Made by a program: the position numbers and the translations under genes. Shown in pieces: positions 18,539 to 35,496 of a DNA stretch of 56,412 bases (within the stretch, counting starts at the first letter, position 1; every line of letters begins with the position of its first letter). The stretch comes from a virus (taxonomy: Duplodnaviria; Heunggongvirae; Uroviricota; Caudoviricetes), in IMG/VR virus record IMGVR_UViG_2718218136_000004, one strand, 5' to 3'. The notes under the pieces are model-generated. The model searched no databases and was not told the DNA's origin. It saw only the letters and a program-made list of their open reading frames with translations.

Positions 18539-19021
18539 ATGTCAGGACCTCCGAAAACCCCGCCACGCCTGCATTTGATTCGAGGTAACCCCTCAAAGCG
18601 CCCCGTTAAAGACCACAAAAAAACCGCTAAAAAGGATGAAAAAGGTCTTCCTAAAATTCCGCAGCATTTAGGGGCTCAGGGGAAGTACTGGTTCAGGCGA
18701 ATGGCGGAAGAGCTGAATGCGGAAGGGATCATTTCTCAGCTTGATGCGCGTGCGCTCGAGCTGCTGGTGGAAGCCTACACCGAATATCGGCATCACTGCG
18801 AAACACTCGATGTTGAGGGGTATACCTACCGCACGGAAACGCAGAGCGGTGATGTACTGATTAAGGCGCACCCCGCGGCGGCAATGAAAGCGGATGCCTG
18901 GAAGCGGATCCGGGCAATGCTTGCAGAGTTTGGTATGTCACCGGCAAGCCGGGCTAAAGTAAATATCGCCGGACCGGATGATGTTGATCCGCTGGCGGAG
19001 CTTTTAAAAGCGAGAGACTGA
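18539..19021 (+). CDS. Terminase small subunit (P27 family)
   Basis: 160-aa ORF immediately upstream of and overlapping terL; similar architecture to the insert-encoded TerS. Confidence 0.75.
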   Translation: MSGPPKTPPRLHLIRGNPSKRPVKDHKKTAKKDEKGLPKIPQHLGAQGKYWFRRMAEELNAEGIISQLDARALELLVEAYTEYRHHCETLDVEGYTYRTETQSGDVLIKAHPAAAMKADAWKRIRAMLAEFGMSPASRAKVNIAGPDDVDPLAELLKARD

Positions 19022-20048
19022 TGGCAAAAGTGGCTGACGGGATCCGCTACGCCGAACGTGTTGTTGCAGGAGAAATTGTTGCTGGCGAATTTGTCCGCCT
19101 GGCCTGCCAGCGTTTTCTTGATGATCTGAAGTACGGCGAAGAGCGGGGGATTTATTTCAGTGAACCCCGTGCGCAGCACATCCTGAATTTCTACAAATTT
19201 GTGCCTCATGTAAAAGGGGCGCTGGCAGGCCAGCCCATTGAGTTGATGGACTGGCATGTATTTATCCTCATTAATATTTTTGGTTTTGTCATTCCGCTGG
19301 TCAATGAAGAGACCGGGGAAGTTGTCATGCGCAGCGATGGCAGCGGACGTCCGGTGATGGTGCGCCGGTTCCGGACGGCGTACAACGAAGTCGCCCGTAA
19401 AAACGCAAAATCAACTCTGTCATCGGGTATCGGCCTGTATATGACGGGGGCAGATGGTGAAGGCGGAGCTGAGGTGTATTCAGCCGCAACCACGCGTGAC
19501 CAGGCCAGAATCGTGTTTGAAGACGCCAAAAATATGGTCAGAAAAGCCCGGTCGACACTCGGGCGGTTGTTTGATTTCAACAAGCTGGCGATTTACCAGG
19601 AGCAGAGCGCATCAAAATTTGAACCGCTTTCTTCGGATGCAAACAACCTGGATGGTCTGAACATCCACTGCGCCATTATTGATGAGCTGCATGCACATAA
19701 AACCCGTGACGTGTGGGACGTTCTGGAAACGGCAACCGGTGCCCGTCTGCAGTCCCTTTTATTTGGTATCACCACGGCAGGGTTTAACAAGGAAGGGATT
19801 TGTTACGAGCAGCGTGATTACGCCATCAAGGTATTGCGTGGCTATAACAGCGACGTGGAGGGCGCGGTAAAAGACGACTCCTACTTTGCGATTATTTACA
19901 CCCTCGATGAGGGAGATGATCCGTTTGATGAAACGGTCTGGCAGAAAGCGAATCCTGGCCTGGGCATCTGTAAACGCTGGGATGATCTGCGTCGTCTGGC
20001 GAAAAAAGCGAAAGAACAGGTCTCTGCGCGGGTGAATTTTTTTACCAA
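19021..20048 (+). CDS. Terminase large subunit, 5' portion (ATPase domain), interrupted by insertion at 20042-20048
   Basis: N-terminal 342 codons align with the insert-encoded TerL up to ...ARVNFFTK; ORF then continues in frame into insert sequence and the integrase gene. Confidence 0.85.
20042..20048. repeat. attL crossover core (TTACCAA)
   Basis: Identical 7-bp core at 35490-35496; flanking sequence partially conserved (TT[T/C]TTACCAA). Confidence 0.5.
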
Positions 20049-20178
20049 GAAAGTAACATCACGCCGTAACAACAGTGCGACCTGTCCTGATTTTTTTAGT
20101 AACCAAATGAAAGAAAAAGTTTTTTTTCTTGTTCGTCGTTTTTGTTTTTTCTGGAAGGTTCTGGCTGTTTTCATCATT

Positions 20179-20200
20179 TGTGTATTGCACTGTGTATTGC
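20179..20200. repeat. Tandem TGTGTATTGC repeats near attL, candidate integrase arm-type binding sites
   Basis: TGTGTATTGCACTGTGTATTGC just upstream of int; near-identical GTGTATTGCGCTGTGTATTGC near attR. Confidence 0.45.
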
Positions 20201-20220
20201 AAAAACGGGTTATAAATCAC

Positions 20221-21444
20221 ATGGCGCTAAACAAACTGAGCGATAAAAAACTTCGTTCCCTGCTTGGACGCAGGAGTGAGAGGCAGGAAACCATCGCTGA
20301 TGGTAACGGGCTTTCGGTACGGGTCAGTAAATACGGATGTGTTAGTTTTGTTTTCTTTTACAGACTGGCGGGAAGGGGAACCGCGCCCATCTGGCTGACA
20401 CTTGGAAAATATCCTGATCTGAGTCTCAAATCAGCGAGAGAGATGCGCGATCAGTGTCGAACCTGGCTTGCGGAGGGCAGAGATCCACGGATTCAGATAA
20501 AAATTGAACGGGAAGCCACCTTGCAACCTGTTACCGTTCGTGAGGCACTTGAATACTGGCTTGATAATTATGCAATGGATAAGCGTAGGGGAGCAGAACA
20601 TATCAGGCAGTGCTTTGGTAAACATATTTATCCGGTGATTGGTCATGTACCACTTAGTGATTGCTCTATATCTATGTGGATCAAGTGTTTTGACAAAATA
20701 AAAAAAGTAGCACCTGTACAGGCCGGAGCTTTGTTGCGTATATCAAAACAGGCGCTTAAATTTTGTAGGGTAAGAAAATACGCGATTAGTCATGAAATTG
20801 ATGATCTTGAGGTCTGTGATGTGGGAAAAAAGTCTGCGCGAAGAAGCAGGGTTTTAACAGATGATGAAATCAGAGATTTATGGCGAAGTATTAATACTGA
20901 TTATGACAATCACGAATTATCATATGAAAACCGAATTATTTTACGTTTCCTGGTAGTTTTTGGTTGTCGACTGTCAGAAGTATTACTGTCGTCCTGGGTA
21001 GAGTGGGATTTTGATAAGAAATTATGGCGCGTTCCCGCTGATCATAGCAAAAATGGCAGGGAAATAATCAGACCGATTCCTGATGGCATGTTTAACTGGT
21101 TAGTTACGTTAAAAAAAATAACAGGTAACAAAGAAAATGTGATTGGGTTTGATATGCGTCAGTGTACGGCAAGCGTAACTATCGGTAAGACATGGAAAAG
21201 GATGAAACACTCGGAGAAATGGACGGCGCATGATATGCGAAGAGTGTTTGCCACAAAACTAAGTGATCATGGTTTTGAACATAATGTGGTTGAACAGTTG
21301 CTTGGGCACACATTAGGCGGTGTTGCCGGGGTTTATAACAGAAGCCAGTATATGGACAGAAAAAAAGAAGCTATGAACTGGTGGTACGACTATCTGAATA
21401 AGCAAATTAGTGGTGACAGTAATGATTCAAATAGTTACGCGTGA
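20221..21444 (+). CDS. int: P4-like tyrosine integrase of the satellite
   Basis: MALNKLSDKKLRSLLG... N-terminus typical of P4-family integrases; catalytic context FGCRLSEV, HDMRRVFAT, GVYNRSQY. Confidence 0.85.
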   Translation: MALNKLSDKKLRSLLGRRSERQETIADGNGLSVRVSKYGCVSFVFFYRLAGRGTAPIWLTLGKYPDLSLKSAREMRDQCRTWLAEGRDPRIQIKIEREATLQPVTVREALEYWLDNYAMDKRRGAEHIRQCFGKHIYPVIGHVPLSDCSISMWIKCFDKIKKVAPVQAGALLRISKQALKFCRVRKYAISHEIDDLEVCDVGKKSARRSRVLTDDEIRDLWRSINTDYDNHELSYENRIILRFLVVFGCRLSEVLLSSWVEWDFDKKLWRVPADHSKNGREIIRPIPDGMFNWLVTLKKITGNKENVIGFDMRQCTASVTIGKTWKRMKHSEKWTAHDMRRVFATKLSDHGFEHNVVEQLLGHTLGGVAGVYNRSQYMDRKKEAMNWWYDYLNKQISGDSNDSNSYA

Positions 21445-21475
21445 AGAACTTGAAAATGATGAAACAATCGACAGG

Positions 21476-21643
21476 ATGATTAAGGAAGATGAATGTGCAT
21501 GGTTAACCGCTCTTGGCAGGAGACACAGATCGTTACTTGAAAAGGAAGGAAAATTTCCACGAAAAATATGTATTGGCCCACAAACAAAAGTCTGGCGCTT
21601 ATCTGAGGTGCTGGAATGGGTAAAAGGTGAATGGAAACCCTGA
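21476..21643 (+). CDS. AlpA-family transcriptional regulator
   Basis: WLTALGRRHRSLLEKEGKFPRKICIGPQTKVWRLSEVLEWV fits the AlpA HTH pattern; start uncertain (alternative ATGs at 21410 and 21422). Confidence 0.55.
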   Translation: MIKEDECAWLTALGRRHRSLLEKEGKFPRKICIGPQTKVWRLSEVLEWVKGEWKP

Positions 21644-21666
21644 GTTAAATTAAATGAGATATAATC

Positions 21667-21690
21667 AACCCGTCTTTTGGCGGGTTTTTT
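21667..21690 (+). terminator. Intrinsic terminator after first alpA-like gene
   Basis: ACCCGTC-TTTT-GGCGGGT followed by T-run. Confidence 0.5.
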
Positions 21691-21706
21691 TATAGGTGAT
21701 ATTTTT

Positions 21707-21985
21707 ATGCAAAAATTTATTTATCCTACACCCGAAGAACGCATTCAGATTCTGAAAGATCATGGCGAACCGTATGATCGCCGTATACGCGAACATGAGT
21801 GTGCCAATCGTACCGGGCTTTCAAGAAGCAGACGTTGGGTACTTGAACAGGAGGGAGCATTTCCTGCTCGTGCTCATTTAGGGAAAGTGTCTGTTTCCTG
21901 GTTGCTCTCTGATGTGCTCTGGTGGGTTATGCATCCGCCAGGAGTAAAGGAAGTAAACAGCCCATACAAAAACGCCAATAAGTAA
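21707..21985 (+). CDS. Second AlpA-like regulator
   Basis: CANRTGLSRSRRWVLEQEGAFPARAHLGKVSVSWLLSDVLWWV fits the AlpA-like HTH pattern. Confidence 0.5.
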   Translation: MQKFIYPTPEERIQILKDHGEPYDRRIREHECANRTGLSRSRRWVLEQEGAFPARAHLGKVSVSWLLSDVLWWVMHPPGVKEVNSPYKNANK

Positions 21986-21995
21986 TTACCGACAA

Positions 21996-22024
21996 CCCCG
22001 CACCACGCAATGCGGGGTTTTTTG
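21996..22024 (+). terminator. Intrinsic terminator after second alpA-like gene
   Basis: CCCCGCA-CCACGCAA-TGCGGGG followed by TTTTTTT. Confidence 0.55.
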
Positions 22025-22042
22025 TATGTGAGGTAAAAAGCA

Positions 22043-22621
22043 ATGAATAAAAATATTGCCGTGACGGGCAAGGGTGACGCACGTCATGTGAAAAAATTCT
22101 GTGATATTCGTGATCTGGTCGTTCTGCGCTTTGATGGCGTGGATGTTCGTGTGGTGTATCTAAACGGCGATCCGTGGTTTGTTGCAAAGGATGTTTGTGC
22201 TGCGCTGGAACTGACCAATTCGCGTACGGCGTTGCAGATGCTTGATGATGACGAAAAGGGAGTAAATTTAACTTACACCCCCGGAGGAAATCAGAATATG
22301 AGCATTATCTCCGAGTCAGGTTTCTACAAACTAATAGCCCGCAGCCGCAAAGCAACGACGCCTGGCACATTTGCTCATCGTTTCAGTAACTGGGTATTCA
22401 GAAATGTGATACCGGGTATCAGAAAAACGGGGGCTTATGGTATCCCGTGGGGCGCATTACAGGATTTTTCCCGCCGCAAAGAGCAATACCAGATAAGTGC
22501 CAGCGAGAAGGGGAGGGAGCTACAGGCATGTAAGCGCAAAAAGCGTGAGCTGGAGGAAGAAGAAAAAAGGCTGATACGTGAATACCAGCCTGAGTTTTAC
22601 TTTGGTGAGCGTATTCAGTAA
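22043..22621 (+). CDS. Bro-N domain protein (antirepressor-like)
   Basis: N-terminal VRVVYLNGDPWFVAKDVCAALELTNSRTALQML matches the Bro-N/KilA-N antirepressor domain. Confidence 0.65.
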   Translation: MNKNIAVTGKGDARHVKKFCDIRDLVVLRFDGVDVRVVYLNGDPWFVAKDVCAALELTNSRTALQMLDDDEKGVNLTYTPGGNQNMSIISESGFYKLIARSRKATTPGTFAHRFSNWVFRNVIPGIRKTGAYGIPWGALQDFSRRKEQYQISASEKGRELQACKRKKRELEEEEKRLIREYQPEFYFGERIQ

Positions 22622-23064
22622 CCACACGCGGTGTTGATTATACGGTACATCGTGTTGACCGGGAAGCTACCCACCAGCAAGGCAAAATCTTCTGCTAAAA
22701 AATGACATATGACCAGTCGTCCGGAAAGCATGAAATTTTACAAAAATGGAAAATGAAGATTTTTATTGTGCTGGTGGGTAAAAACAAAAAGCGCCCCGTT
22801 ACCGGAGCGCCCTTGCGAACAATTAACCTACTGCGCAAAAAATGAATCTGTGCGGGGGGATTATATCAACCGTGGTCGAAATGACCATAGTTGCAGGATA
22901 ACAGGCAAAACAAAGGCCACCCGCTACGGTGGCCCCTTGACACAAGCTACACGTTATCCCCAACGCATGAGCATAACCAACAATGCCACATTTACGGCTG
23001 GTGGGCAAATCCTGAGCTGTTCTGTAATTACAGAAACTACGGCATTGTCGCGGTTAGGTTATGA

Positions 23065-23217
23065 TCAACTTTTTTTCAACTCTATATCGCAAGCACGCCG
23101 TAATATATCGCCTTCATTGCTTCCGCAAAGATTCTTTTTCTCGAAGCATGATTTTAAGATAAAGGCGGCGACAATTAGAACAATCGCACAGAGTGCACAA
23201 TTTTTAAGTTTTGGCAT
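23065..23217 (-). CDS. Small hydrophobic peptide (50 aa)
   Basis: [28 protein letters not shown]... with AGGAG RBS 7 nt upstream; downstream of an RHH-like gene on the same strand. Confidence 0.4.
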
Positions 23218-23271
23218 CTTTTACTCCTATGGTTGCCGCCGTGATTCCTCACACCACGGCGCTGGTGATGG

Positions 23272-23451
23272 TTATTCCTGCTCTTTGGCCTTGCGACGCT
23301 GGCGGTATTCAACTTCTCGCTTTAATGCTGCTGTTACAAACTGCCCTGTACTTTCACCAGGCATTTTTACCGCCTCAACATTGTTCATAACTTCATGCGG
23401 AACCCTTGCCGCAACTGTTTGTGATTTTGCGTTTACTGCTTTTGTTGCCAT
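23272..23451 (-). CDS. Ribbon-helix-helix-like small DNA-binding protein
   Basis: 59 aa; ...[17 protein letters not shown]...[16 protein letters not shown] fits an RHH strand-helix-helix pattern; adjacent to palindromic operators. Confidence 0.45.
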
Positions 23452-23501
23452 GTTGTGTACCCCTTACAAAAAACAAATGCAGTATGCAGGAAAAAAAATA
23501 A

Positions 23502-23553
23502 GTGTTCAACACTTGACGTGTTTAACACTAGGGCTTAAATTGGTGTTCAACAC
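23502..23553. promoter_or_regulatory. Satellite operator region: three GTGTT(C/T)AACAC palindromes between divergent operons
   Basis: Palindromes at 23502-23512, 23518-23528, 23543-23553. Confidence 0.45.
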
Positions 23554-23650
23554 CTTGCTGATGCAAGGTGCAGAAACGACGAAACCCGGCAGTGCGCTAA
23601 CACTAACCGGGCTTCTAACCACCAACGATAGAAAGCGTATCGAGGTAGCT

Positions 23651-24190
23651 ATGCTAAATCATACCACACACCCGCAAGGGCGGGACTCGCACAACCTGAA
23701 TAAACCCGATGTAAAAAACCTGTTGATCGCCACTGCCAGCCAGGGCTATGATTTACCCGCACCAGCAAAATCTGGTGCCGGGATTGGCGTCCTGGTATTT
23801 AACGAAGCGCACAACACGCGCCCTGCGTGTTTTTTTGTGCCGGATAGTCACACCTTATCAATGGTGGGCTGTATGGGGGCGGAGCAATCCGCGCCGGGTT
23901 CTTCGTTAACCGGTTACGCCAACCCTGTACAGTCCACCGCCAGCGAAATTGGCGTTTCCTGCGGTGGGTTTATTAAACCTAACGAAGAGGCTGCCAACAT
24001 GGCTACTATCCCTACCCTTGTACATTCCCAAACTGCCTTTATCTGGCGCTTTATCATCTTTGGCGCGTCAGAGTCCCAAATCATCCACGTCACCGCCTGG
24101 ACGGAACGCGAAGCGCGTAACCATTGCCCGTCAGGTTGTGTCGCTGTATTCGCCGCCCGTATTCGTCAGGGGGTGCGCCATGTGCAATAA
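23651..24190 (+). CDS. Hypothetical protein (first gene of satellite rightward operon)
   Basis: GAGG RBS before ATG at 23651; stop overlaps next start; amino-acid composition not strongly protein-like. Confidence 0.3.
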
Positions 24191-24425
24191 CACCCGTCCG
24201 GACGCAGCCGCCGAAGCCATCAAAACGCTGATGCACGCGCTGATTGATATTTCATGCACGGTAGCAACCGCAGAAAAACACATTACCAGAGAGACGGAAT
24301 ATACAGGGGCGATAATCCCGCATTCGCTGGCTTACGCACAGCTTACCGCTGATATGGCGCTGAATGAGGCTAAAGCCATCCTGATTGCTGATTGTGAAAA
24401 TGGCGGGGGCGATTATGCGAAATAA
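24180..24425 (+). CDS. Hypothetical protein
   Basis: 81-aa [28 protein letters not shown]..., start overlaps upstream stop. Confidence 0.4.
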
Positions 24426-24633
24426 ACATGATATTGAAGACCTGGCATTTGAAGCCCTGCACTCTGCGAAAAAAATCAGGGAAGTCGTCAATATGTGGAT
24501 GAACAGCCTTAGCACCGATAAATCCGATAGCAGAGAAGAAATTCTTATTTCTTTGTTGTTAGACCTGGCAAATACACAGGTTTCTCTGACATCTGATATT
24601 GAGCTCGCCGCTAAAAAGCTGCCTCTGGAGTAA
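24412..24633 (+). CDS. Hypothetical protein
   Basis: 73-aa [28 protein letters not shown]..., start overlaps upstream stop. Confidence 0.4.
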   Translation: MMRNKHDIEDLAFEALHSAKKIREVVNMWMNSLSTDKSDSREEILISLLLDLANTQVSLTSDIELAAKKLPLE

Positions 24634-24639
24634 AAAAAC

Positions 24640-24954
24640 ATGAAAAAGAAAAATTCTGGCTTTACTGCCAGCGGTCACGCTCGGCCTGAAATCCGCCCCG
24701 GTGATATTTTCCGGGATAAATACGGCAGCACGATAACGATTAAAACCGTCGATGATTTTCGTGTGACCTATATCCGCGAAGGTTATGCGCATCCCTGCGT
24801 GTCGTCACATATGCGCTTTGACAGGGAGTTCACCCTGGTAAGCAAAGCACCACCAGCAGAATTAAGCGACATCGACAGAATCATGCGCGTTACAGGAATG
24901 GAACGCATTAAGGCAGTACGTGAAATTATTCGTGAACGGGGAAAGGCAAAATGA
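24640..24954 (+). CDS. Hypothetical protein
   Basis: 104-aa ORF overlapping the start of the replication gene. Confidence 0.45.
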   Translation: MKKKNSGFTASGHARPEIRPGDIFRDKYGSTITIKTVDDFRVTYIREGYAHPCVSSHMRFDREFTLVSKAPPAELSDIDRIMRVTGMERIKAVREIIRERGKAK

Positions 24955-27077
24955 AGCGCGCACCAAACTTAAAGCACCAGCCAGCCGACAAAATGACGGA
25001 GGTTATCATCTTTGCGGGTAGTGATGCGTGGAGCCATGCGAAAGAGTGGCAGGAATGGGCAGGTAAGCATATTGCCGCCGACAATGTGCCGCCTGTCGTT
25101 CTGTCAGATGAACACCTGAAAGATATTACCGGTTATCAAATTATTGATGATAGCCGTCAGTGTGTGCGTATTTACCGCGCAGGGCACATCACTGAACGTA
25201 GCCTCACACAGATCGTCACGTTGCTGGCTGTGGCTGGCGTGAAGACCGTATACGAATACGCGGGGATAACTGACACCAGCCCGGCGGATTTATCCGACCA
25301 GTTGCCTCGCCTCAAAGACGAATACGAGCGCGGGGAAAGTCTGGTGTTGCCCTTAAAGAAAAAAATCACAGAAAGCCCGGGTGATGATGAATTAAAGCCC
25401 CGCGTTGAAAGCCGCGCCGATGGTGTTTTCTGGGTAACGCCAAAAGTGGATAAGCAGTCAGGCGAAATTATCCGGCCTGAAACGTGGTTATGCTCCCCGC
25501 TTGAGCTACTGGGAACGGGGACAATCGGCAAAGAGCATTACCGCGTGATGCGCTGGAAAAAGCCAGCAAACCATGAAGTCATCACGATGGCGGTTCCGTG
25601 CGGTGGCATTGGCGACCGTGACGGCTGGCGGCTGCTGAAAGACCACGGACTGAACGTGACAACCAACGGTAAATACAGGGCTATCCTGGCTGACTGGATG
25701 CAGTTAAGCGGAAACCATGAGGAATGGCAGTTAAGCACAACAACGGGCTGGCATTTTGGCGCGTACATCATGCCGGACGGTTCGGTCATTGGTGATTGCG
25801 AAAAGCCAGTCCTGTTTACCGGAAAAACGGCTGCCGTTAATGGTTATTCCGTGGCAGGAACGGCGGAGGGCTGGCGCGACAGTGTGGCGCGACTGGCTGG
25901 TGGTAATCCGTCCATGATGCTGGGTGTGGCGGTATCGCTATCCGCACCATTAATCGGGCTGGTGGGTGCTGACGGCTTCGGGGTACATCTTTTCGAACAG
26001 TCATCGGCAGGTAAGACCACAACGCAGAACATCGCATCAAGTTTATGGGGAGAGCCGGACGCGCAGCGGCTGACCTGGTACGGCACAGCGTTAGGTATCG
26101 CCAACGAAGCAGAGGCACACAATGACGGGCTTTTACCCCTGGATGAAATAGGCCAGGCCGGAAACGCGCGGGAGGTGTCCACGTCAGCCTATACGCTGTT
26201 TAACGGTTCGGGGAAATTACAGGGGGCGAAGGACGGCGGCAACAGGGAGATCAAACACTGGCGCACGGTGGCAATCAGCACCGGAGAAATGGACGTTGAG
26301 ACATTCCTCAAAACGGAGGGGATAAAAGTCAAAGTGGGGCAGCTTGTCCGCCTGCTTAACGTTCCGATGGAAAAAGCCACGCAATTTCACGAATACAGCA
26401 CCGGAAAGGCGCACGCAGACGCGTTAAAGGATGCCTGGACAGAAAATCACGGGGCGGCGGGTCGTGAGTGGGTTAAATGGCTGGCAGAACACCAGCAGGA
26501 GGCAAAGGACACGGTAAGGACATGCCGTGAGCGGTGGCGCAACCTGATACCGGAGAGCTACGGCGAACAGGTTCACCGTGTGGGGGAGCGATTTGCCATA
26601 CTGGAGGCCGCGCTTGTGCTTTCAGGTCATGTTACTGGCTGGGATGAGCAGGAATGCCGCGATGCCATACAGCATAATTTTAATGCCTGGGTGAAGGAGT
26701 TCGGCACGGGTAACAGGGAATTTAAACAGATGGTTGAACAGGCAGAAGCTTTTTTAGCGTCGTTCGGATTCAGCAGATACCTTCCGTGGCCCAATACCGA
26801 CGAGCGTGATTTACCGATTAAAGAACTTGCCGGATACAGAAAGGGGAGTATCAGAAACGAAGATGACGAGTTCCGTTTTTACACGTTCCCGCATGTATTT
26901 GAGGGTGAGATAGCACAGGGATTTAATCCGTCTCACTTTGCCCGCGCGTTGAGTGCTGCCGGAATGCTGGAAGCGGGTAACGATCGCCGTTACAAGAAAA
27001 AGGCGCTCGGCAAAATTGGGGGGAAGCAGCATGTTTTTTACGTGCTGATGTTCCAGCCAGAAAGCGAAGAAGATTAA
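24951..27077 (+). CDS. Satellite replication initiator, primase/helicase-like P-loop NTPase (DUF927-like)
   Basis: 708-aa ORF with Walker A-like SSAGKTTTQN; immediately upstream of an iteron/AT-rich origin and an SSB gene. Confidence 0.6.
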   Translation: MKRAPNLKHQPADKMTEVIIFAGSDAWSHAKEWQEWAGKHIAADNVPPVVLSDEHLKDITGYQIIDDSRQCVRIYRAGHITERSLTQIVTLLAVAGVKTVYEYAGITDTSPADLSDQLPRLKDEYERGESLVLPLKKKITESPGDDELKPRVESRADGVFWVTPKVDKQSGEIIRPETWLCSPLELLGTGTIGKEHYRVMRWKKPANHEVITMAVPCGGIGDRDGWRLLKDHGLNVTTNGKYRAILADWMQLSGNHEEWQLSTTTGWHFGAYIMPDGSVIGDCEKPVLFTGKTAAVNGYSVAGTAEGWRDSVARLAGGNPSMMLGVAVSLSAPLIGLVGADGFGVHLFEQSSAGKTTTQNIASSLWGEPDAQRLTWYGTALGIANEAEAHNDGLLPLDEIGQAGNAREVSTSAYTLFNGSGKLQGAKDGGNREIKHWRTVAISTGEMDVETFLKTEGIKVKVGQLVRLLNVPMEKATQFHEYSTGKAHADALKDAWTENHGAAGREWVKWLAEHQQEAKDTVRTCRERWRNLIPESYGEQVHRVGERFAILEAALVLSGHVTGWDEQECRDAIQHNFNAWVKEFGTGNREFKQMVEQAEAFLASFGFSRYLPWPNTDERDLPIKELAGYRKGSIRNEDDEFRFYTFPHVFEGEIAQGFNPSHFARALSAAGMLEAGNDRRYKKKALGKIGGKQHVFYVLMFQPESEED

Positions 27078-27099
27078 TTTTTTCTCGCGTGTAGGGTGA

Positions 27100-27255
27100 A
27101 AATTTTGCGGGTTATGCGGGTTATTTCTGTGGATAAATCAGTATCCATATGATTATTAAAGGAATGACAGGAAAATCGTAACCCGCAAAATACCCAAAAT
27201 AACCCGCAAAACGGCAGTTATAACCCGCAAAAGTGCGATTATAACCCGCAGAATT
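27100..27255. repeat. Candidate satellite origin of replication: GCGGGTTAT x2, AT-rich spacer, ATAACCCGCAAAA x4
   Basis: Inverted iteron sets flanking an AT-rich segment immediately 3' of the replication gene. Confidence 0.6.
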
Positions 27256-27313
27256 TCACAGTAAGGGTGTAAACAAGCGTAACTATCAACGTTAAAACCG
27301 GAGAACAGACAGC

Positions 27314-27739
27314 ATGACAGCACAGATAGCGGCTTACGGGCGGCTGGTGGCTGACCCGCAGTTAAAGACCACCAGCAAGGGGACACAAATGGCTATGGCG
27401 AGTATGGCGGTTCCCCTGCCGTGCAGCCAGGCAGATGAAGGAACGGCGACGATGTGGTTATCCGTCCTGGCGTTTGGCAGACAGGCCGATGCACTGGCAA
27501 AACACCAGAAAGGCGAACTGGTGAGTGTGGCGGGTAACATGCAGGTAAGCCAGTGGACAGGCCAGAACGGCGAAATGCGGCAGGGCTGGCAGGTCATCGC
27601 AGACAGCGTAATCAGTGCGCGAACGGCGCGACCGGGCGGCAAAAAAGGCCAGCAGGGCCAGGCTACTGACGCACTGAACAGGGCAAAACAACAGACAGGC
27701 CAGCACGATGATCCGTACGGGGACGGGATACCGTTTTAA
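27314..27739 (+). CDS. Single-stranded DNA-binding protein (SSB-like)
   Basis: 141-aa ORF ending ...DDPYGDGIPF, resembling the acidic SSB C-terminal tail (DDDIPF). Confidence 0.6.
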   Translation: MTAQIAAYGRLVADPQLKTTSKGTQMAMASMAVPLPCSQADEGTATMWLSVLAFGRQADALAKHQKGELVSVAGNMQVSQWTGQNGEMRQGWQVIADSVISARTARPGGKKGQQGQATDALNRAKQQTGQHDDPYGDGIPF

Positions 27740-27754
27740 GCAGTGAGGTACAGC

Positions 27755-28051
27755 ATGATTAAAGACAGCAAAGCGGAAGAACTGGAGGCTAAAGGGCTGT
27801 ACCGGAGAGCGGCGGCACGTTGGGCTGATGTTATGTGGCTGGTGAGCACTGACAAGGAGCGCGAACAGGTGGCAAAGCGTCGCGCGGAATGTATCCGTAA
27901 GGCAGCGCGTCAACCAGTCATACCGGATAATTTCGGAATACTGAAAGAGGCCATAAACCGCACACATACCGGGATGGGCTTACAGAAACCTGGCGGTGAG
28001 ATGTTCAGGAACTACCCGAAAAAAAAAGGGATAATTGATAACGGTTGTTAA
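27755..28051 (+). CDS. Hypothetical small protein
   Basis: 98-aa ORF with GTGAGG RBS. Confidence 0.4.
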   Translation: MIKDSKAEELEAKGLYRRAAARWADVMWLVSTDKEREQVAKRRAECIRKAARQPVIPDNFGILKEAINRTHTGMGLQKPGGEMFRNYPKKKGIIDNGC

Positions 28052-28083
28052 CTGTTTCTGGTATCGTGGCAGCAGGAGGAAAC

Positions 28084-28332
28084 ATGCCAGTGACATTTGA
28101 AGAAGTCCAGCAACATAAAAAGCTTCATGATTTTGATGATCTGGAAACCACGACAGTAAAAAAATATCGCCGGCTGCTTTCTTCCGATGCGTTATTTTTT
28201 GTGGATCATCATGATTTTCTGCGTAGCTCACTGACCGGGGAAATTTTCGCAACCAACCGTGAGCAGGTGGAAGCGATGATCGAATATCTGTGGAAAATAA
28301 GACGCAGAATGCGGGATCCAGTGAAACAATAA
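28084..28332 (+). CDS. Hypothetical small protein
   Basis: 82-aa ORF with AGGAGG RBS. Confidence 0.45.
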   Translation: MPVTFEEVQQHKKLHDFDDLETTTVKKYRRLLSSDALFFVDHHDFLRSSLTGEIFATNREQVEAMIEYLWKIRRRMRDPVKQ

Positions 28333-28605
28333 AGCGATAAAGGCCTGGATTTTTTTCAGGTCTTTTTTCAGGTTTTGTAAATTATTTGTTCGTGGTTGTT
28401 CCAGGTTGTTCGGTGATTCTGGCTGATGTTTACATACTGATTTTTATGTATATGTTGGCGTGTGGCACTCAGACGTGAGCCGCCACAATGCCGCCTGACC
28501 CCCTGCGCGATGCCGGGTTGATCTGCGAGATGCCGAGAGTGTCGGGCGGCGCTCCCTCCGTGTTGGTTTCACGTCCTGAATCTTAACCAATACGAGAAAA
28601 CCTTC

Positions 28606-29775
28606 ATGAAGAAATTAATCGAACTCCGCCAGCAAAAAACCGCCCTGAAAAACCAGATGCGATCCCTGCTGGAAAAAGCCGACAGTGAAAACCGCAGCCT
28701 GAACGATGACGAGGGCAAACAGTTTGATGAACTGCGTGCAAAAGCCGATTCCCTCGACACAGAAATTTCCCGCCTCGAGTCTGTGGCTGATGAAGAACGC
28801 AGCAAGCCAGGAACGGGCATCCAGAAATTATCATCTGATGAATTGCGTAACTATATCGTAACCGGAGATGTGCGATCACTGTCCACCAGCACTGACAGCG
28901 GCAGGGATGGCGGATATACCGTAATTCCTGAGCTTGATCGCGAAGTCATGCGCCAGCTACAGGATGACAGTGTTATGCGCGTGATCGCGACCGTGAAGAC
29001 CGCAAAATCAAATGAGTTTCAGAAACTGGTTTCCACTGGCGGCGCAACTGTAGGAAGAGGCACAGAAGGCAGCGCGCGCAGCGAAACCAACACCCCGAAA
29101 ATTGAACGCGTAACCATCAAGCTGAATCCGATCTACGCCTACCCGAAAACCACGCAGGAAATCCTGGATTTTTCAGAGGTGGATATTCTGGGCTGGTTAT
29201 CCTCCGAAATTGCCGACACGTTCGCCAGCACCGAAGAGGATGATTTTGTTAATGGCGACGGTAACGGCAAGCCGAAAGGATTCATGGCTTACACCCGTGC
29301 GGCGACCAGTGACAAAACCCGCGCTTTTGGCACCATTGAAAAAATGGTAGCGGCAAGTGGAACCGCCATTACAGCGGACGAACTGATCGACATTCTCTAC
29401 AAGCTGAAAGCGAAATACCGCAAAAATGCCGTCTGGGTGATGAACTCGGGCACGGCAGGGACACTACAGAAGCTGAAAAATGAGAACGGCGATTATATCT
29501 GGCGCGACAGCCTTAAAGAAGGTGCGCCGGATATGTTGCTTGGTCGTCCTGTTTACTGCCTGGAGTCCATGCCGGACATCGGCGCAGGAAAAGCACCGCT
29601 AGCGGTTGGCGATTTCAGTCGTGGTTATTTCATCGTTGATCATGTAACAGGGATTCGCACCCGACCGGACAACATTACTGAACCCGGATTCTACAAGGTC
29701 CACACGGATAAATATCTGGGCGGTGGTGTGGTGGATTCAAACGCCATCAAAATTCTGGAAATGAAAGCTGGCTAG
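28606..29775 (+). CDS. Satellite major capsid protein (HK97 fold) with N-terminal coiled-coil delta domain
   Basis: 389 aa; C-terminal region co-linear with the prophage capsid protein (38304-39509). Confidence 0.8.
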   Translation: MKKLIELRQQKTALKNQMRSLLEKADSENRSLNDDEGKQFDELRAKADSLDTEISRLESVADEERSKPGTGIQKLSSDELRNYIVTGDVRSLSTSTDSGRDGGYTVIPELDREVMRQLQDDSVMRVIATVKTAKSNEFQKLVSTGGATVGRGTEGSARSETNTPKIERVTIKLNPIYAYPKTTQEILDFSEVDILGWLSSEIADTFASTEEDDFVNGDGNGKPKGFMAYTRAATSDKTRAFGTIEKMVAASGTAITADELIDILYKLKAKYRKNAVWVMNSGTAGTLQKLKNENGDYIWRDSLKEGAPDMLLGRPVYCLESMPDIGAGKAPLAVGDFSRGYFIVDHVTGIRTRPDNITEPGFYKVHTDKYLGGGVVDSNAIKILEMKAG

Positions 29776-29787
29776 TCATGAGTAAGG

Positions 29788-29810
29788 AGGAGGCTGCGGC
29801 CTCCTTTTTC
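29788..29810 (+). terminator. Stem-loop with T-run after satellite capsid gene
   Basis: AGGAGGC-TGCG-GCCTCCT followed by TTTTT. Confidence 0.4.
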
Positions 29811-29829
29811 AGCTTTATGGAGTACACCG

Positions 29830-30390
29830 ATGAAAAACACCGATTTTGAAATCCGCACATCTGAACTGACCGCCAGCGATAAAAAACTGGTGGGTTATGC
29901 CGTTCGCTGGAACAGCCTTTCAGAAATTATCTGGGACGAATTCCGCGAACAGTTCACGCCGGGGGCTTTTGCTGACTATCTGGCGGCGGGTAATGATGTG
30001 CGCTGCCTGTATGAGCATGACTATACCCAACTGCTGGGGCGCACCAAATCCGGCACTCTGGTACTGACTGAGGATAACACCGGGTTACGTTTTGAGCTGA
30101 CACCGCCGGATACCCAGCTTGGAAAAGATGTGCTTACGCTGGTGGAGCGTGGCGACATTACAGGAATGAGCTTTGGTTTTCGCGCATTATGCGAGGAGTG
30201 GAGTATCGCGCAAAAACCGTATTTGCGTACCGTAACTGCCGCAGAACTCCGTGAAATCACGATAACGTCGATGCCTGCTTATCCCGAATCCGGCGTGGAG
30301 ATTGCCCACCGTTCGTTGTTTGCACAGCACCCTGAATTACGCCCGGCAGGAAATAATCGTCATCGCTGGGCTGAACTGGCGGGGTTGTGA
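29830..30390 (+). CDS. Satellite prohead protease (HK97 family)
   Basis: 186-aa ORF similar in N-terminus to the prophage protease; between capsid and portal genes. Confidence 0.75.
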   Translation: MKNTDFEIRTSELTASDKKLVGYAVRWNSLSEIIWDEFREQFTPGAFADYLAAGNDVRCLYEHDYTQLLGRTKSGTLVLTEDNTGLRFELTPPDTQLGKDVLTLVERGDITGMSFGFRALCEEWSIAQKPYLRTVTAAELREITITSMPAYPESGVEIAHRSLFAQHPELRPAGNNRHRWAELAGL

Positions 30391-30391
30391 T

Positions 30392-31615
30392 ATGTGGTGG
30401 CCTTTTAGTCGTAAAAAAAGCGAGCTGCGTAACCTGTCCATTGATGATTTTCTGGCGCTGTCCGGCGTACCGAATACCGGAGCCGGAGAATATGTTTCTG
30501 CCGGGACGGCTGAATCATTGCCTGCTGTGATGAACGCGGTTTCTGTCATCGCTGAGGCGGTGGCCACGATGCCGTGTTATCTGTATCTGGTACGTAATGA
30601 CAAGGGCAGGGAGGCGCGGGAATGGTTGGACAGTCACCCGGTCGATATTCTGCTGAATGAGCAGCCTAATTCGTGCCAGACACCTTACCAGTTTAAACGC
30701 ACAATGATGCGTCACTGCCTGCTGAACGGTAACGCCTATGCGGTTATTGAGTGGGGGCGGGACGGTCAGCCAAAATCACTTCATCCTTATGCGCCGGGGT
30801 GTGTTGTACCGGAACGCACAGGCGCACACAAATACCGCTATACCATCACCGAACCCTATACAGGAACGGTGCGCACGTATTTACAGGAAGAAGTTCTGCA
30901 TCTCCGCTATGCCTCGGATGATGGCTTTCTGGGGCGCTCCCCTGTCACGATTTGCCGTGAGGCACTTGGGCTTGGCCTTGCTCAACAGCGCCACGGAGCC
31001 AGCATTATGAAAGATGGCATGATGGCGGCAGGGATTATCACGTCAGGCGAATGGCTGGACGGCGTGAAAGGTAAACAGGCATTGGATGCTCTGGAACGCT
31101 ACAAGGGGGCGAAAAATGCCGGAAAAACGCCAATCCTTGAAGGGGGCATGGATTACAAGCAACTGGGAATGAGTAACCAGGATGCGGAATGGCTGGCCTC
31201 CCGTCGCTTCTCCATTGAAGACATTGCCCGTATGTTCAACGTATCGCCTATTTTTCTGCAGGAATACAGCAATAGCACCTACAGCAATTTCAGCGAGGCA
31301 AGCCGCGCGTTTCTGACCATGACAATGCGCCCATGGCTGGCGAACTTCGAACAGCAAATCAAGGCTGCTTTGCTGGTGGCTTCTCCCGTACCTGGTACCC
31401 GTTATCTGGTTGAGTTTGATTCAGCCGATTTACTGCGCGCCACACCTACCGAACGTTACGCCACGTATGAGAAAGGAATTAAGAACGGGATCATGAATCC
31501 GAACGAAGCCCGTGAGCGTGAGGGAATGCCGCCGCGTGAAGGTGGCGACGAGTTCAGCCAGGCATGGAAGCAGGAAGTGACAATCAGCAAGAACAGTAAG
31601 GGCGGTGACGAATGA
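30392..31615 (+). CDS. Satellite portal protein (HK97 family)
   Basis: ATG at 30392 after protease stop; segments homologous to the prophage portal (36420-37661). Confidence 0.8.
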   Translation: MWWPFSRKKSELRNLSIDDFLALSGVPNTGAGEYVSAGTAESLPAVMNAVSVIAEAVATMPCYLYLVRNDKGREAREWLDSHPVDILLNEQPNSCQTPYQFKRTMMRHCLLNGNAYAVIEWGRDGQPKSLHPYAPGCVVPERTGAHKYRYTITEPYTGTVRTYLQEEVLHLRYASDDGFLGRSPVTICREALGLGLAQQRHGASIMKDGMMAAGIITSGEWLDGVKGKQALDALERYKGAKNAGKTPILEGGMDYKQLGMSNQDAEWLASRRFSIEDIARMFNVSPIFLQEYSNSTYSNFSEASRAFLTMTMRPWLANFEQQIKAALLVASPVPGTRYLVEFDSADLLRATPTERYATYEKGIKNGIMNPNEAREREGMPPREGGDEFSQAWKQEVTISKNSKGGDE

Positions 31616-31950
31616 TAGCCGGAAATATGCGGGACCGGGTGACGATTATGACATTTACCACACAGCGCCTGCCGTCAGGTGCGATCCAGCAGATATGGAC
31701 GGAAGGGGAAACCATCTGGGCAGAGGTCAAGGGGATCAGCGGACGGGAATTACTGACCGCAGGCGCAGAAACCGCACCTGCAACGATTCGGGTATGGGTT
31801 CGCTATCGTGGCGACATATCCGCCGCCAGTCGCCTGAAAGTGCTTACCGGCGCTTTTGCCGGGAGCACGCTTAATATCATCGGGATCCCCTTACCTGATG
31901 CGAAAAGAACCCGGCTGGAAATTCTGGCAAAGGTGGGTACAGAAAAATGA
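31612..31950 (+). CDS. Satellite head-tail adaptor / head closure protein
   Basis: 112 aa, about 60% identical by eye to the prophage homologue at 40074-40412 (shared TIWAEVKGISGRE, RLEIL). Confidence 0.7.
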   Translation: MIAGNMRDRVTIMTFTTQRLPSGAIQQIWTEGETIWAEVKGISGRELLTAGAETAPATIRVWVRYRGDISAASRLKVLTGAFAGSTLNIIGIPLPDAKRTRLEILAKVGTEK

Positions 31951-32243
31951 CAGCAGAAAAAATAACCCTGGAAGAGGCCAAACTTCACTGCCGCATAGAT
32001 GGTAACACAGAAGACACACTGATTCAGGCATACATAAGCGCGGCGCTGGAGGTATGCCAGAAGCATATTGGCAGGCGTTTTGATGACGGCCTGGAATTTA
32101 CCCCTGCAATAAAAATTGGTTGCCTGATGTACATCTCGCAACTGTACGAGTACCGGACAACGCTTGGCGATACCGATACAAAAGAAATTCCCCTGACGAT
32201 TTCCGCGCTCTGGTCGGTTTATCGTGATGTGGGGGTGTACTGA
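31947..32243 (+). CDS. Satellite head-tail connector (gp6-like)
   Basis: 98-aa ORF; related to the prophage protein at 39760-40065 (shared CRID...N...E pattern). Confidence 0.6.
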   Translation: MTAEKITLEEAKLHCRIDGNTEDTLIQAYISAALEVCQKHIGRRFDDGLEFTPAIKIGCLMYISQLYEYRTTLGDTDTKEIPLTISALWSVYRDVGVY

Positions 32244-32683
32244 TGCCATGGCAACCATTAAGGCGATGCACTGAGCCGGGCTGTAATAAGCGCGTGAAGT
32301 CCGGCAAGTGTGAAGAGCACAGGCGGGCTGCATGGCGTGCAGAGGATGCCAGACGGGGACACCGCCGCGCACGTGGGTATTCCCGACTGTGGGACAAATA
32401 CCGCGCCATGTACCTGAAAAAAAATCCGTTATGCGTGCGTTGTCTGGCTAAGGGTATTTATACGCCAGCTCTTGTGGTGGATCACATCATTCCCATCAAT
32501 GGCGGCGGTGATGTTCTCTTCTGGCCTGAGTGGAACCACCAGGCATTGTGCCAGACGTGCCACAACCGTAAGACGACACGGGAAGATCCAGCCACGAAAG
32601 CGAACCGTAAGGCGGGCATGTATCGCGAGCAGGAAGAACGGGCGGCACATCGTAACGACTGGATGTATGGCGATGATGACTGA
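32243..32683 (+). CDS. Satellite HNH endonuclease
   Basis: Cys-rich N-terminus and VVDHIIPINGGGD...ALCQTCHNRKT HNH motif; upstream of terS. Confidence 0.8.
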   Translation: MPWQPLRRCTEPGCNKRVKSGKCEEHRRAAWRAEDARRGHRRARGYSRLWDKYRAMYLKKNPLCVRCLAKGIYTPALVVDHIIPINGGGDVLFWPEWNHQALCQTCHNRKTTREDPATKANRKAGMYREQEERAAHRNDWMYGDDD

Positions 32684-32971
32684 ACAGGAGCAAAACAGGC
32701 TGATACGTGGACTGATAAGGCAGCGTGACTTATGGAAGACACAGGAGACAGGGCACAAAGCCAACAGGACAGAGCGCACAGAACGCACCACAGCGAAGCG
32801 ATTAACCGACCGTGACCGCGAGGTCATGGAATGTTTTCGCAATCGCTGGTGAGGCCGTCAGAGGGGGTGGGGGAGGTTTTCAGGACGAAACCGCCCCTGC
32901 CGGACACCGACCGCCTCCTCAAATTTTTGTGCACGGGAATTTTTTTGAAAATAATTGGGCGAAAAAAGAAC

Positions 32972-33328
32972 ATGGCAAGACCACCAAAAGCCCCCGCTTA
33001 CCTGGATGAAATCGCGGTCAGGCAGTGGAAGGAAAAATCGCGCCAGCTTTCCGGGCGGGAAGACCTTACCCCCGCCGACTGGAGCAATCTGGAACTGTAT
33101 TGTGTTAACTACTCCATATACCGCAAAGCCGTCGAAGACCTTGCGACGCGCGGGTTCAGCATTGTTAACAGTCAGGGCAGCGAGAGCAGAAACCCCGCCC
33201 TGAGCGCAAAGGCTGACGCGGAAAGAATAATGATCAAAATGGCTTCTTTGCTGGGTTTTGACCCGGTAAGCCGCCGCAGAAATCCACCGGAAACAGAGGA
33301 AGAGGACGAGCTTGACCGCCTGGCATGA
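32972..33328 (+). CDS. Satellite terminase small subunit (P27 family)
   Basis: Start at MARPPKAPAYLDE... (ATG 32972); upstream of and overlapping terL. Confidence 0.65.
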   Translation: MARPPKAPAYLDEIAVRQWKEKSRQLSGREDLTPADWSNLELYCVNYSIYRKAVEDLATRGFSIVNSQGSESRNPALSAKADAERIMIKMASLLGFDPVSRRRNPPETEEEDELDRLA

Positions 33329-34973
33329 GTACGCAGAAGGCGTAAAAAACGGCAAAATTACGGCCTGTAAACGACTGAAACAGGCCGTTAAACGGTATTT
33401 TTATGACCTTGAAAACCCCCTTTACACGTTCGAACCGGAGGTCGTGGAGCGGTTTATTGCCTTTTCCAGGGTGTGTCCGCACGTAAAAGGCGCAATGCGT
33501 GGTAGCCCCATTGAGCTGGAGCCGTGGCAGCAGTTCGCCTTTGCGTGCATCCTGGGCTTTAAGGTTAAGGCCACCGGACGGCGCAAATACACCAGCGCAT
33601 TCATTGAAGTACCGCGAAAAAATGCCAAATCCACGGTCGCCGCTATCCTGGCTAACTGGTTTCTGGTTATGGAAAACGGGCAGCAGGATATTTACACCGC
33701 CGCCGTGAGTCGTGATCAGGCGCGGATCGTGTTTGATGATGCGCGTCAGATGTGCCTTTTATCCCGACCGTTACGAAAGCGGGTAAATATTCAGGCACAC
33801 AAGGTGATACACCCGAAAACCAACAGCCTGTTAAAGCCACTGGCAGCAAAAGCGGCAACCATTGAAGGTACAAACCCGAGTCTTGCCATTGTAGATGAAT
33901 ATCACCTGCACCCTGACAACGGGGTTTATTCCGCGCTTGAACTGGGAATGGGGGCGCGTCCGGAGGGGTTATTATTTGCCATCACCACATCGGGGAGCAA
34001 CGTTGTTTCAGCCTGTAAACAACACTACGACTATTGCTGCCAGATACTGGATGGTGAAGAGGTGAACGAATCCATGTTCGTACTGATTTACGAGCTGGAT
34101 GATGAAAGCGAGGTTGACGATCCGGCGATGTGGATAAAGGCGAATCCCAATATCGATGTTTCCGTCGATCGTGAAAAACTGGCCTCAACCATCCAGAAAG
34201 CGCGGGGTATTCCGTCGCAGTGGGTGGAAATGCTCACCAAGCGATTCAATATCTGGTGTCAGGGGGCTACGCCGTGGATGGGTAACGGTGCATGGGCGGA
34301 GTGCGCCGGAACGTTCGCGGAGGCGGATTTATACGGGCAGGAGTGCTACGTGGGGCTGGACTTATCATCAACCAGCGATATTTCTAGCGTGTGCTATGCC
34401 TTTCCGGTCGGTAAAAAGATTATGCTGGTTTCCCGTCACTATCTGCCGGAATTTCAGTTACAGAACCCCGCCAATAAAAACCGCGCCATTTATCGCCAGT
34501 GGGTAAAGGCGGGCTGGATACGCACAACACCGGGTGACTGCATTGATTATGACCGTATCCGTGATGACATCATGGTGGATGCAGAGAATTTCAGTATCAG
34601 GCTGGTGGGCTTCGATACATGGAACGCCACTCACCTGAGAACACAGCTACAGGGGGCGGGATTTGAGGTGGAGCCGTTCCCGCAAACGTACCTTCGTTTC
34701 AGTCCGGCGGCGAAATCGTTCGAAGTTTTTGTTAACCGGAAGGTGATTGTGCATCGTGGTGATCCGGTGCTGGCCTGGTCAATGAGTAATGTTGTGATGC
34801 AGAGTGACGCGAACGCCAATATCAAGCCGAACAAGAAAAAATCATCCAACAAGATAGACCCGAGCGTTGCGGCGCTGATGGCGTTTGGCACATTCCAGGC
34901 AGAGCATGAGGAATTTGCATTCGATATGAGCGACAGCCACAAAGAGCGGCTTGCGACGTTTGATGGTGTGTAA
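33312..34973 (+). CDS. Satellite terminase large subunit, intact
   Basis: 553-aa ORF co-linear with both fragments of the split prophage terL (ATPase and nuclease domains). Confidence 0.85.
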   Translation: MTAWHEYAEGVKNGKITACKRLKQAVKRYFYDLENPLYTFEPEVVERFIAFSRVCPHVKGAMRGSPIELEPWQQFAFACILGFKVKATGRRKYTSAFIEVPRKNAKSTVAAILANWFLVMENGQQDIYTAAVSRDQARIVFDDARQMCLLSRPLRKRVNIQAHKVIHPKTNSLLKPLAAKAATIEGTNPSLAIVDEYHLHPDNGVYSALELGMGARPEGLLFAITTSGSNVVSACKQHYDYCCQILDGEEVNESMFVLIYELDDESEVDDPAMWIKANPNIDVSVDREKLASTIQKARGIPSQWVEMLTKRFNIWCQGATPWMGNGAWAECAGTFAEADLYGQECYVGLDLSSTSDISSVCYAFPVGKKIMLVSRHYLPEFQLQNPANKNRAIYRQWVKAGWIRTTPGDCIDYDRIRDDIMVDAENFSIRLVGFDTWNATHLRTQLQGAGFEVEPFPQTYLRFSPAAKSFEVFVNRKVIVHRGDPVLAWSMSNVVMQSDANANIKPNKKKSSNKIDPSVAALMAFGTFQAEHEEFAFDMSDSHKERLATFDGV

Positions 34974-35049
34974 CGGAATGGATGAGAGAGGACAATGCTC
35001 ATTTAATGGAATAAATTTTCAGTATTATCGGCACCCACTTTCAGGGATG

Positions 35050-35210
35050 TTTTTGCGGGTTATTTGAGTGGTGTTTGCGGGTTATTTTGAATGTCTTGCG
35101 GGTTACATTCTGGCTGATATTTAGATACGTTGTTTTTTAACGTATTGATATTAAAGAGTAAAAAATACTTAGCACGCGAAGATAACCCGCTAACCCGCAT
35201 AACCCGCACT
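35050..35210. repeat. Second iteron cluster near the satellite right end: TTGCGGGTTA(T/C) x3, AT-rich spacer with palindrome, ATAACCCGC x3
   Basis: Same motif and inverted architecture as the cluster at 27100-27255. Confidence 0.5.
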
Positions 35211-35393
35211 GTTTTGTATATATATACGAAAAATTGCATTCAGGGGGGGATCGAAATTTCTACTGCCTCTTATCTCTTTGAGTGCTCACCTCGTCAGATT
35301 GTTACACACAAGAAATAAAAAATGCTTCGCGATGGTAGGTCGAATCACTGTATCAAAAAACGGTGTGTATCAGCATTAAAACAATACAGATAC

Positions 35394-35414
35394 GTGTATT
35401 GCGCTGTGTATTGC
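35394..35414. repeat. GTGTATTGC repeats near attR, candidate integrase arm-type sites
   Basis: GTGTATTGCGCTGTGTATTGC; further GTGTAT / CAATAC copies at 35361-35390. Confidence 0.45.
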
Positions 35415-35489
35415 TCGATGATTTATAAAGACTGTTTTTTCATGTTAACTGATTGATATACAGGTGATTTTAAAAAACTTGAAATATTC

Positions 35490-35496
35490 TTACCAA
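35490..35496. repeat. attR crossover core (TTACCAA)
   Basis: Direct repeat of 20042-20048. Confidence 0.5.

Follow-up and report, generated by a model that had tools for sequence, protein, structure and literature searches.

A candidate Rep-dependent replication origin of a capsid-forming PICI, with a mirror-image partner module 8 kb away

In SaPIs, Rep is a self-loading helicase that is itself the initiator (PMC9371898, which summarises Ubeda 2007 and 2012), and the same article describes a C-terminal winged-helix domain that binds the iterons and determines specificity and an ori located immediately 3' of rep, with 6–12 iterons, an AT-rich centre, at least two iterons in opposite orientation on each side, and ATP-independent melting (PMC9371898). 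The layout of opposed iteron sets around an AT-rich region 3' of rep has also been published for Gram-negative PICIs, one of which, EcCICFT073, has a pri-rep-ori segment that drives plasmid maintenance (PMC6092414). In the EcCICFT073 sequence examined here, the 288-bp rep-ssb intergenic region contains TGTCTACC iterons, with a tandem pair on the left, an inverted tandem pair on the right, an AT-rich spacer past the first pair, and spaced internal copies. In the satellite P4, ori and crr are reportedly two clusters of one short iteron that lie kilobases apart; the alpha protein recognises the two through its C-terminal domain, and both are required in cis. This protein combines a Toprim primase with an SF3 (D5-like) helicase, and crr is a pair of direct 120-bp repeats. 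Capsid-forming PICIs are induced in a helper-dependent manner and join their own small capsids to helper tails (bioRxiv 10.1101/2022.09.08.507074); neither this preprint nor a 2025 follow-up preprint mentions the ori. The helper-embedded configuration (HE-PICI) has been published as well, and one such element, 11capE, hardly replicated, if at all, once it had excised and was copied mostly passively (PMC10111431).

Here we analyse the corresponding locus of a satellite found in a 56,412-nucleotide stretch of viral DNA (Caudoviricetes; IMG/VR record IMGVR_UViG_2718218136_000004), referred to as the window. The satellite (Table 1) is inserted within terL of an HK97-like prophage, in the same orientation as terL, and has the HE-PICI configuration: terL is split at TTACCAA, ORF 19021-21444 consists of the TerL N-terminus (the first ~345 codons) fused in frame to the integrase, and ORF 35501-36226 encodes the TerL nuclease C-terminus (Pfam). 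To judge from the junctions, excision would restore an intact terL in a sequence context identical to that of phage vB_EcoM-606R7. All genes run in one direction, in the order integrase, two AlpA, Bro-N, Ash, DUF4222, rep, SSB, and PerC, followed by major capsid, prohead protease, portal, head completion, connector, HNH, TerS, and TerL (Pfam), and no tail genes were detected in the satellite by Pfam scans. E. coli APEC17 carries an identical locus, whose RefSeq annotation likewise shows a unidirectional element and the interrupted terL. EcCIEDL933, the prototype of the lineage, has the same gene order, with 54–93% protein identity over the ssb-to-terL genes. With ~15 kb and a unidirectional int-alpA-rep segment followed by the capsid-to-TerL set, the element is, by its gene set, a capsid-forming PICI related to EcCIEDL933. 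The two consecutive AlpA-family genes that follow the integrase lie at 21410-21643 and 21677-21985. Inside the Ash/Bro zone, Rfam places two P4-type immunity RNA elements above gathering score on the plus strand, isrK at 23759-23835 (80 bits) and a C4 antisense RNA at 23857-23944 (75 bits). Each att junction has, on the side towards the satellite (20179-20201 and 35394-35414), a doubled TGTGTATTGC motif, 12 bp from start to start, which is a candidate arm site for the integrase or AlpA and is probably the "doubled DNA motif" of HE-PICIs (PMC10111431).

Table 1. Features of the satellite and its putative origin modules in the window, and position of module B in related loci where it is separated from module A
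Feature	Position	Strand	Basis or description
Whole satellite, capsid-forming PICI, 15,448 bp	20042-35496	+	junction alignment with intact terL of vB_EcoM-606R7
attL	20042-20048		7-bp core TTACCAA
attR	35490-35496		7-bp core TTACCAA
rep, 708-aa DUF927 protein	24951-27077	+	Pfam DUF927, E 5.8e-46
Left iterons of module A, TAACCCGCA twice in tandem, 9-bp spacing	27106-27123	-	sequence read, exact 9-mer count
Module A spacer, presumed melting region, 55 bp, 31% GC	27124-27178		duplex-stability ranking, GC content
Right iterons of module A, one degenerate and four exact copies of TAACCCGCA	27179-27250	+	sequence read
ssb, the satellite's own, first gene past module A	27314-27739	+	Pfam SSB, E 1.2e-15
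Module B spaced iteron set, exact TAACCCGCA at 35054, 35076, and 35097, spacing 22 and 21 bp	35054-35105	-
Module B spacer, 77 bp, 30% GC	35106-35182		stability ranking, GC content
Module B tandem set, TAACCCGC-TAACCCGCA-TAACCCGCA, 8/9-bp spacing	35183-35208	+
Module B of L003	+10.9 kb from Rep stop
Module B of L004	+2.3 kb from Rep stop
Module B of L018	+7.2 kb from Rep stop
Module B of L026	+6.2 kb from Rep stop
Module B of L028	+4.8 kb from Rep stop
Module B of L036	+8.8 kb from Rep stop
Module B of L037	+5.9 kb from Rep stop
Module B of L058	+9.0 kb from Rep stop
Module B of L071	+0.57 kb from Rep stop

The original prediction, made from the sequence of the window, placed a satellite origin of the usual PICI/SaPI layout immediately 3' of the replication gene, with inverted iteron sets flanking an AT-rich spacer. 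These elements are all present: the array starts 28 bp past the rep stop codon (27075-27077) and contains six exact copies of the 9-mer TAACCCGCA within 27106-27250, two on the minus strand to the left of the spacer and four on the plus strand to its right, so that both sets are directed away from the spacer. The left end, 27105-27124, reads TTGCGGGTTATGCGGGTTAT, in which the reverse complement of TAACCCGCA, TGCGGGTTA, is repeated in tandem (27106 and 27115). On the right, the exact copies start at 27179, 27200, 27221, and 27242 (i.e., at a spacing of exactly 21 bp), with a degenerate fifth copy, ATACCCAAA, at 27190; the consensus ATAACCCGCA(A/G)AA proposed for these direct repeats holds, the one exception being the first copy, which has a G in place of the A before it. 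Counting both strands of the whole window, TAACCCGCA occurs 14 times, against 0.53 ± 0.67 expected from 100 dinucleotide-preserving shuffles of the window, none of which reached 14, and 11 of the 14 copies fall in two clusters, six in the array just described (module A) and five in a second one (module B, below). The remaining three, at 38876 (+), 49052 (+), and 54039 (-), are isolated in the late region of the helper prophage and may reflect chance, oligonucleotide bias, or stray Rep sites.

The 40-mer at 27121-27160 (25% GC), which takes in the core of the module A spacer, ranks as the fourth least stable duplex stretch in the 15.4-kb element. Also in the spacer are a palindrome, TGGATA-N6-TATCCA (27130-27147), and, at 27128-27136 on the minus strand, a perfect match to the consensus of the DnaA box, TTATCCACA. 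A DnaA-box scan of 80 related loci (see below) found a relaxed box at the same offset in EcCIEDL933 and in L003 and none in the other 77; we therefore reject the DnaA box as a family-wide feature. The three loci (of 80) that have one all belong to the E. coli TAACCCGCA lineage, to which any involvement of host DnaA may be restricted. No Rfam family was found in either module at the gathering threshold.

The adjacent gene had been called primase/helicase-like, and the helicase part of this description stands. Searched with hmmsearch against the PDB, the Rep profile matches SaPIbov1 Rep (8tch, E 4.6e-16) and Cch, the SCCmec helicase (5dgk, E 1.3e-4), and the same two structures are the top Foldseek matches, for which the query was a poor full-length AlphaFold2 model. 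A Walker A motif (SSAGKTT) is located near residue 351 and a Walker B motif (LLPLDE) near residue 394. The primase part does not hold up: by Pfam, Rep contains DUF927 only, with no Toprim, Zn-ribbon, D5_N, or Pox_D5 domain, which also sets it apart from initiators of the P4 alpha type. In DUF927 homologues of ~920 aa, an N-terminal primase (Zn_Ribbon_Prim and Toprim_3) occupies the place of the module formed by residues 1-160 of Rep, a segment that is held in common with the Pri-Rep protein of EcCICFT073 (40% identity, E 4e-26). This segment (24951-25430) has no Pfam match and is modelled as an alternating beta-alpha structure with a pLDDT of 82–92. From these comparisons, Rep is a helicase-initiator of the SaPIbov1 Rep type rather than a primase/helicase.

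The last ~105 residues of Rep form a putative iteron-recognition helix-turn-helix domain. They match the Pfam family HTH_56 ("Cch helix turn helix") with E 5e-4 and 20.4 bits, against a curated cutoff of 26.2, and HTH_56 is the only Pfam family matched by the C-terminal domains of the homologues (8 of 40 members, best E 1.8e-5). AlphaFold2 gave a pLDDT of 54 for full-length Rep and of 57 for residues 481-708 (41 sequences), with the last 100 residues below 50, and because of these low values the modelling does not confirm a winged-helix fold for the domain.

Covariation provides a further link between this domain and the iterons. The Rep protein of an E. albertii locus (L004) is 97–100% identical to that of the window over most of residues 1-600 (83–93% in a few 30-residue blocks) and 30–53% identical over the last ~105 residues, and its iteron, in modules A and B alike, is TGGGACAAG as opposed to TAACCCGCA in the window. 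Conversely, a Budvicia Rep (L062) is 55% identical to the window Rep in its core and 80% identical in its C-terminal domain, and the iteron, TAACCCGT, is near-identical. The two proteins are, by these identities, natural domain swaps of Rep, and in an alignment of C-terminal domains the variable segment (KKALGKIGGKQHVFYVL in the window) groups by iteron class. Iteron sequence thus appears to track the last ~105 Rep residues strongly, and not the integrase or the terminase. It should be noted that in L004 the joint variation of A, B, and the C-terminal domain could partly represent one 2.4-kb recombination block.

To place the array in its family, we retrieved 80 loci from many Enterobacterales genera with a profile of 16 homologues and searched for iterons by counting 7-mers in the 450 bp past each Rep stop codon. 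Module A is found at near-constant offsets from the Rep stop in 72 of the 80 loci (the other eight have no clear iteron or an unclear layout), in accordance with the predicted origin layout, and follows a fixed grammar: two or three tandem copies at +25 to +45, a spacer of ~50 bp, and three or four copies on the opposite strand at about +95 to +155, with 11/21-bp spacing. In 43 of the 80 loci it is followed directly by an inverted module B, which ends in a tandem set at about +255 to +340, and the contiguous pair spans about 300 bp in most relatives. A further 19–22 related loci have module A only, within the flank available, and module B is for this reason not demonstrably required. At least 13 different iteron cores are used across the loci (TAACCCGCA, TGGGACAAG, TAACCCAC, TGAACCACG, TGAACCAAC, TAACCCGT, TGAACCGAC, GAGACAAC, TGGTACAAC, (T)ACCCGAC, AAACCGAC, TGACACACT, and GGGATAAG among them), and modules A and B of one locus always use the same core.

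In the window, the second TAACCCGCA cluster (35054-35208), with five exact copies and one single-mismatch copy, is located 7.98 kb downstream, 80 bp past terL and 280 bp before attR, and it is a mirror image of module A (Table 1). Only one 40-mer in the element is less stable than the core of its spacer (35133-35172, 17% GC); the spacers of both modules thus rank among the four least stable 40-mers, and that of B is the less stable of the two. Directly outside the tandem iterons, at 35217-35226, lies TATATATATA, which is missing from module A and is kept in the B modules of EcCIEDL933 and L003. Together with a longer spacer and a third, degenerate tandem copy, this flanking sequence is common to the B modules of the window, EcCIEDL933, and L003, which from these features are orthologous to each other, and this argues that module B of the window is the displaced partner of module A, not a fresh duplicate. 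The stretch originally singled out as the origin candidate would therefore be module A of the origin and only half of the whole, the mirror partner being module B.

The distance between the two modules is what distinguishes the window from most relatives. In EcCIEDL933 (L002), A and B are contiguous (12009-12324), whereas in the window the 8 kb between them hold ssb, perC, and all of the capsid/packaging operon. Ten loci with four iteron types, the window included, are split in this manner (Table 1); one of these satellites, L003, carries different cargo, does not form capsids, and has no packaging genes. Among IMG/VR contigs of the TAACCCGCA type with both tandem sets, nine are contiguous (~298 bp) and seven are split (7.8–10.7 kb), and the orientation is A(+)...B(-) in all 16. 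We considered whether the modules are diametrically opposed on the excised circle, as the two arcs measure 7.95 and 7.50 kb here, but the offsets of +2.3 kb in L004 and +0.57 kb in L071 show that such an opposition is not general. We found no description of a split A/B arrangement in the PICI literature searched, and it is this physical separation of the two modules that we have not found described; nor did that search turn up a replication, binding, or melting experiment on this element or on EcCIEDL933.

Taken together, position and layout make it likely that 27105-27254 is one module, module A, of a Rep-dependent replication origin of the capsid-forming PICI, and by its layout and its initiator such an origin is of the known PICI/SaPI kind. 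The sequence-level predictions that follow from this assignment, namely position, grammar, a low-stability spacer, and covariation with the Rep C-terminus, are all borne out. As in SaPI origins, module A lies 3' of rep, has at least two opposed iterons per side, and has a cognate helicase of the SaPI Rep type, and SaPIbov1, SaPI1, and SaPI5 are alike in their homologous initiator, the ori 3' of rep, the opposed iterons, and the AT-rich centre. The differences are that SaPI iterons are 5–6 bp long as compared with 9 bp here, that the present family has a fixed grammar of tandem 9-bp-spaced and 21-bp-spaced sets, that its origin is a mirror-image pair of units (8 kb apart in the window element), and that the host is Gram-negative and no separate or fused primase is recognisable. 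EcCICFT073 is alike in ori position, in overall design, in the ~160-residue N-terminus of its initiator, and in the order DUF4222-rep-ori-ssb-perC, and differs in its helicase, which is of the D5_N/DUF5906/Pox_D5 family, in its iteron, and in that its halves are contiguous. Since EcCICFT073 has the two-module mirror design despite a helicase of another family, this design appears to be general for Gram-negative PICI origins.

By homology with SaPIs, we envisage that after induction Rep would bind the 9-bp iterons through its C-terminal helix-turn-helix and assemble on both sides of the AT-rich spacer; as 21 bp corresponds to two helical turns, the spaced iterons would lie on one face of the helix. 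Rep would then melt the spacer and load itself as a hexameric helicase, and the SSB encoded just downstream would coat the single strands. Priming and synthesis would be carried out by host or helper enzymes, priming being left to them because Rep is without a primase domain. Module B has the same iterons, and the same Rep would bind it. These steps, from binding and melting to the loading of the helicase, are inferred, as is any part played by module B.

How the two modules relate to each other is less clear than the assignment of module A. One reading, somewhat less likely than not, is that the family origin is intrinsically bipartite, consisting of two mirror-image Rep-loading modules whose halves have been parted by 2–11 kb of cargo in the window and in many relatives, and that the halves may act either as two opposed origins or by long-range Rep-mediated pairing in the manner of P4 ori/crr. 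The P4 system is alike in having two distant clusters of the same iteron, in being a small satellite with one initiator-helicase, and in the isrK/C4 RNAs; it differs in that the window Rep is a DUF927 protein (SaPI Rep/Cch-like) without a primase and in that crr is not a mirror of ori. Iteron plasmids and P1 (incC/incA) are alike in their iterons, AT-rich region, DnaA box in the spacer (as at 27128-27136), and second distant cluster, and differ in that their Rep is a winged-helix-only protein that recruits DnaB, while here the initiator is itself the helicase.

A somewhat less probable reading is that module A is the complete origin and that module B is an auxiliary Rep-binding locus and not a second site of initiation, either serving copy control or handcuffing like P1 incA or acting as a cis enhancer like P4 crr. 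Module A alone answers to the SaPI definition of at least two opposed iterons on each side of an AT-rich region (PMC9371898), the loci in which only A is present in the available sequence are consistent with its sufficiency, and B is found anywhere from +0.2 to +11 kb. On the other hand, B has the internal design of A, its spacer is very AT-rich and of even lower stability, and the contiguity of A and B in 43 of the 80 loci resembles one composite origin.

It is improbable that only module A matters and that B has no function, being what remains of another satellite after recombination or a tandem insertion. Satellites are mosaic, with the rep module in common and different cargo, and L022 and L082 have additional modules that probably belong to neighbouring elements, as such a history would produce. 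However, in all ten split loci, covering four iteron types, B carries the iteron of the resident Rep with its copies intact, the seven split and nine contiguous IMG/VR cases are all A(+)...B(-), and the B-specific flanks are conserved. Still less probable is that the iterons are mainly Rep operators, those of A controlling the ssb-perC-capsid operon and those of B controlling int across attP, with replication occurring elsewhere or being helper-dependent. Module A is indeed flanked by rep and ssb, with a weak -35/-10 match (27164-27191) overlapping its first direct iteron; a published helper-embedded PICI was, moreover, replicated mostly passively (PMC10111431), and in view of this 11capE result the autonomous replication of embedded satellites may be modest. 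But promoter and terminator scans around A and B gave nothing above shuffle expectation, the layout and position equal those of the experimentally defined origins of SaPIs and EcCICFT073, Rep is a homologue of helicases and not a repressor, and the low-stability spacers are conserved. It is barely credible that the repeats serve packaging, as a cos/pac site, or are arm sites of the integrase, as the location of B between terL and attR might suggest: in the capsid-forming PICIs EcCIEDL933 and L005, B is beside A, ~6.5 kb upstream of terS/terL, the modules occur in satellites without packaging genes (L003), the distinct doubled TGTGTATTGC flanks both att sites, and the iteron tracks the Rep C-terminus. 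The presence of the modules in elements with and without packaging genes, together with the negative scans, thus disfavours the remnant, operator, packaging, and arm-site explanations alike.

If the origin is indeed bipartite, with halves that work together over kilobases, it would be the first ori/crr-like long-range architecture in a PICI with a self-loading helicase of the SaPI Rep/Cch type, and it would offer a natural system for studying how a single hexamer comes to be loaded by one module in a defined orientation. The analysis also provides the capsid-forming PICI lineage with a concrete candidate origin and cognate initiator, the prototype EcCIEDL933 having the same iteron and Rep. The apparent specificity code, which pairs the 9-bp iteron with the final ~105 Rep residues and comes with clean natural domain swaps and at least 13 natural variants, could be of use in studies of incompatibility and in engineering. 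A two-module origin that is usually contiguous can, as seen here, be parted by cargo, which bears on module exchange among these mosaic satellites and on helicase loading.

Outside the satellite, the helper prophage contains repeats of its own: (A/G)(T/C)GTCACG copies at 10-11-bp spacing form two clusters, at ~7006-7045 and ~7266-7312, within ORF 6872-7948, which encodes a 358-aa prophage protein with no Pfam match and lies upstream of a DUF977 gene. By their appearance, these clusters may be an iteron origin that the helper prophage carries inside a gene, in the style of lambda O/ori.
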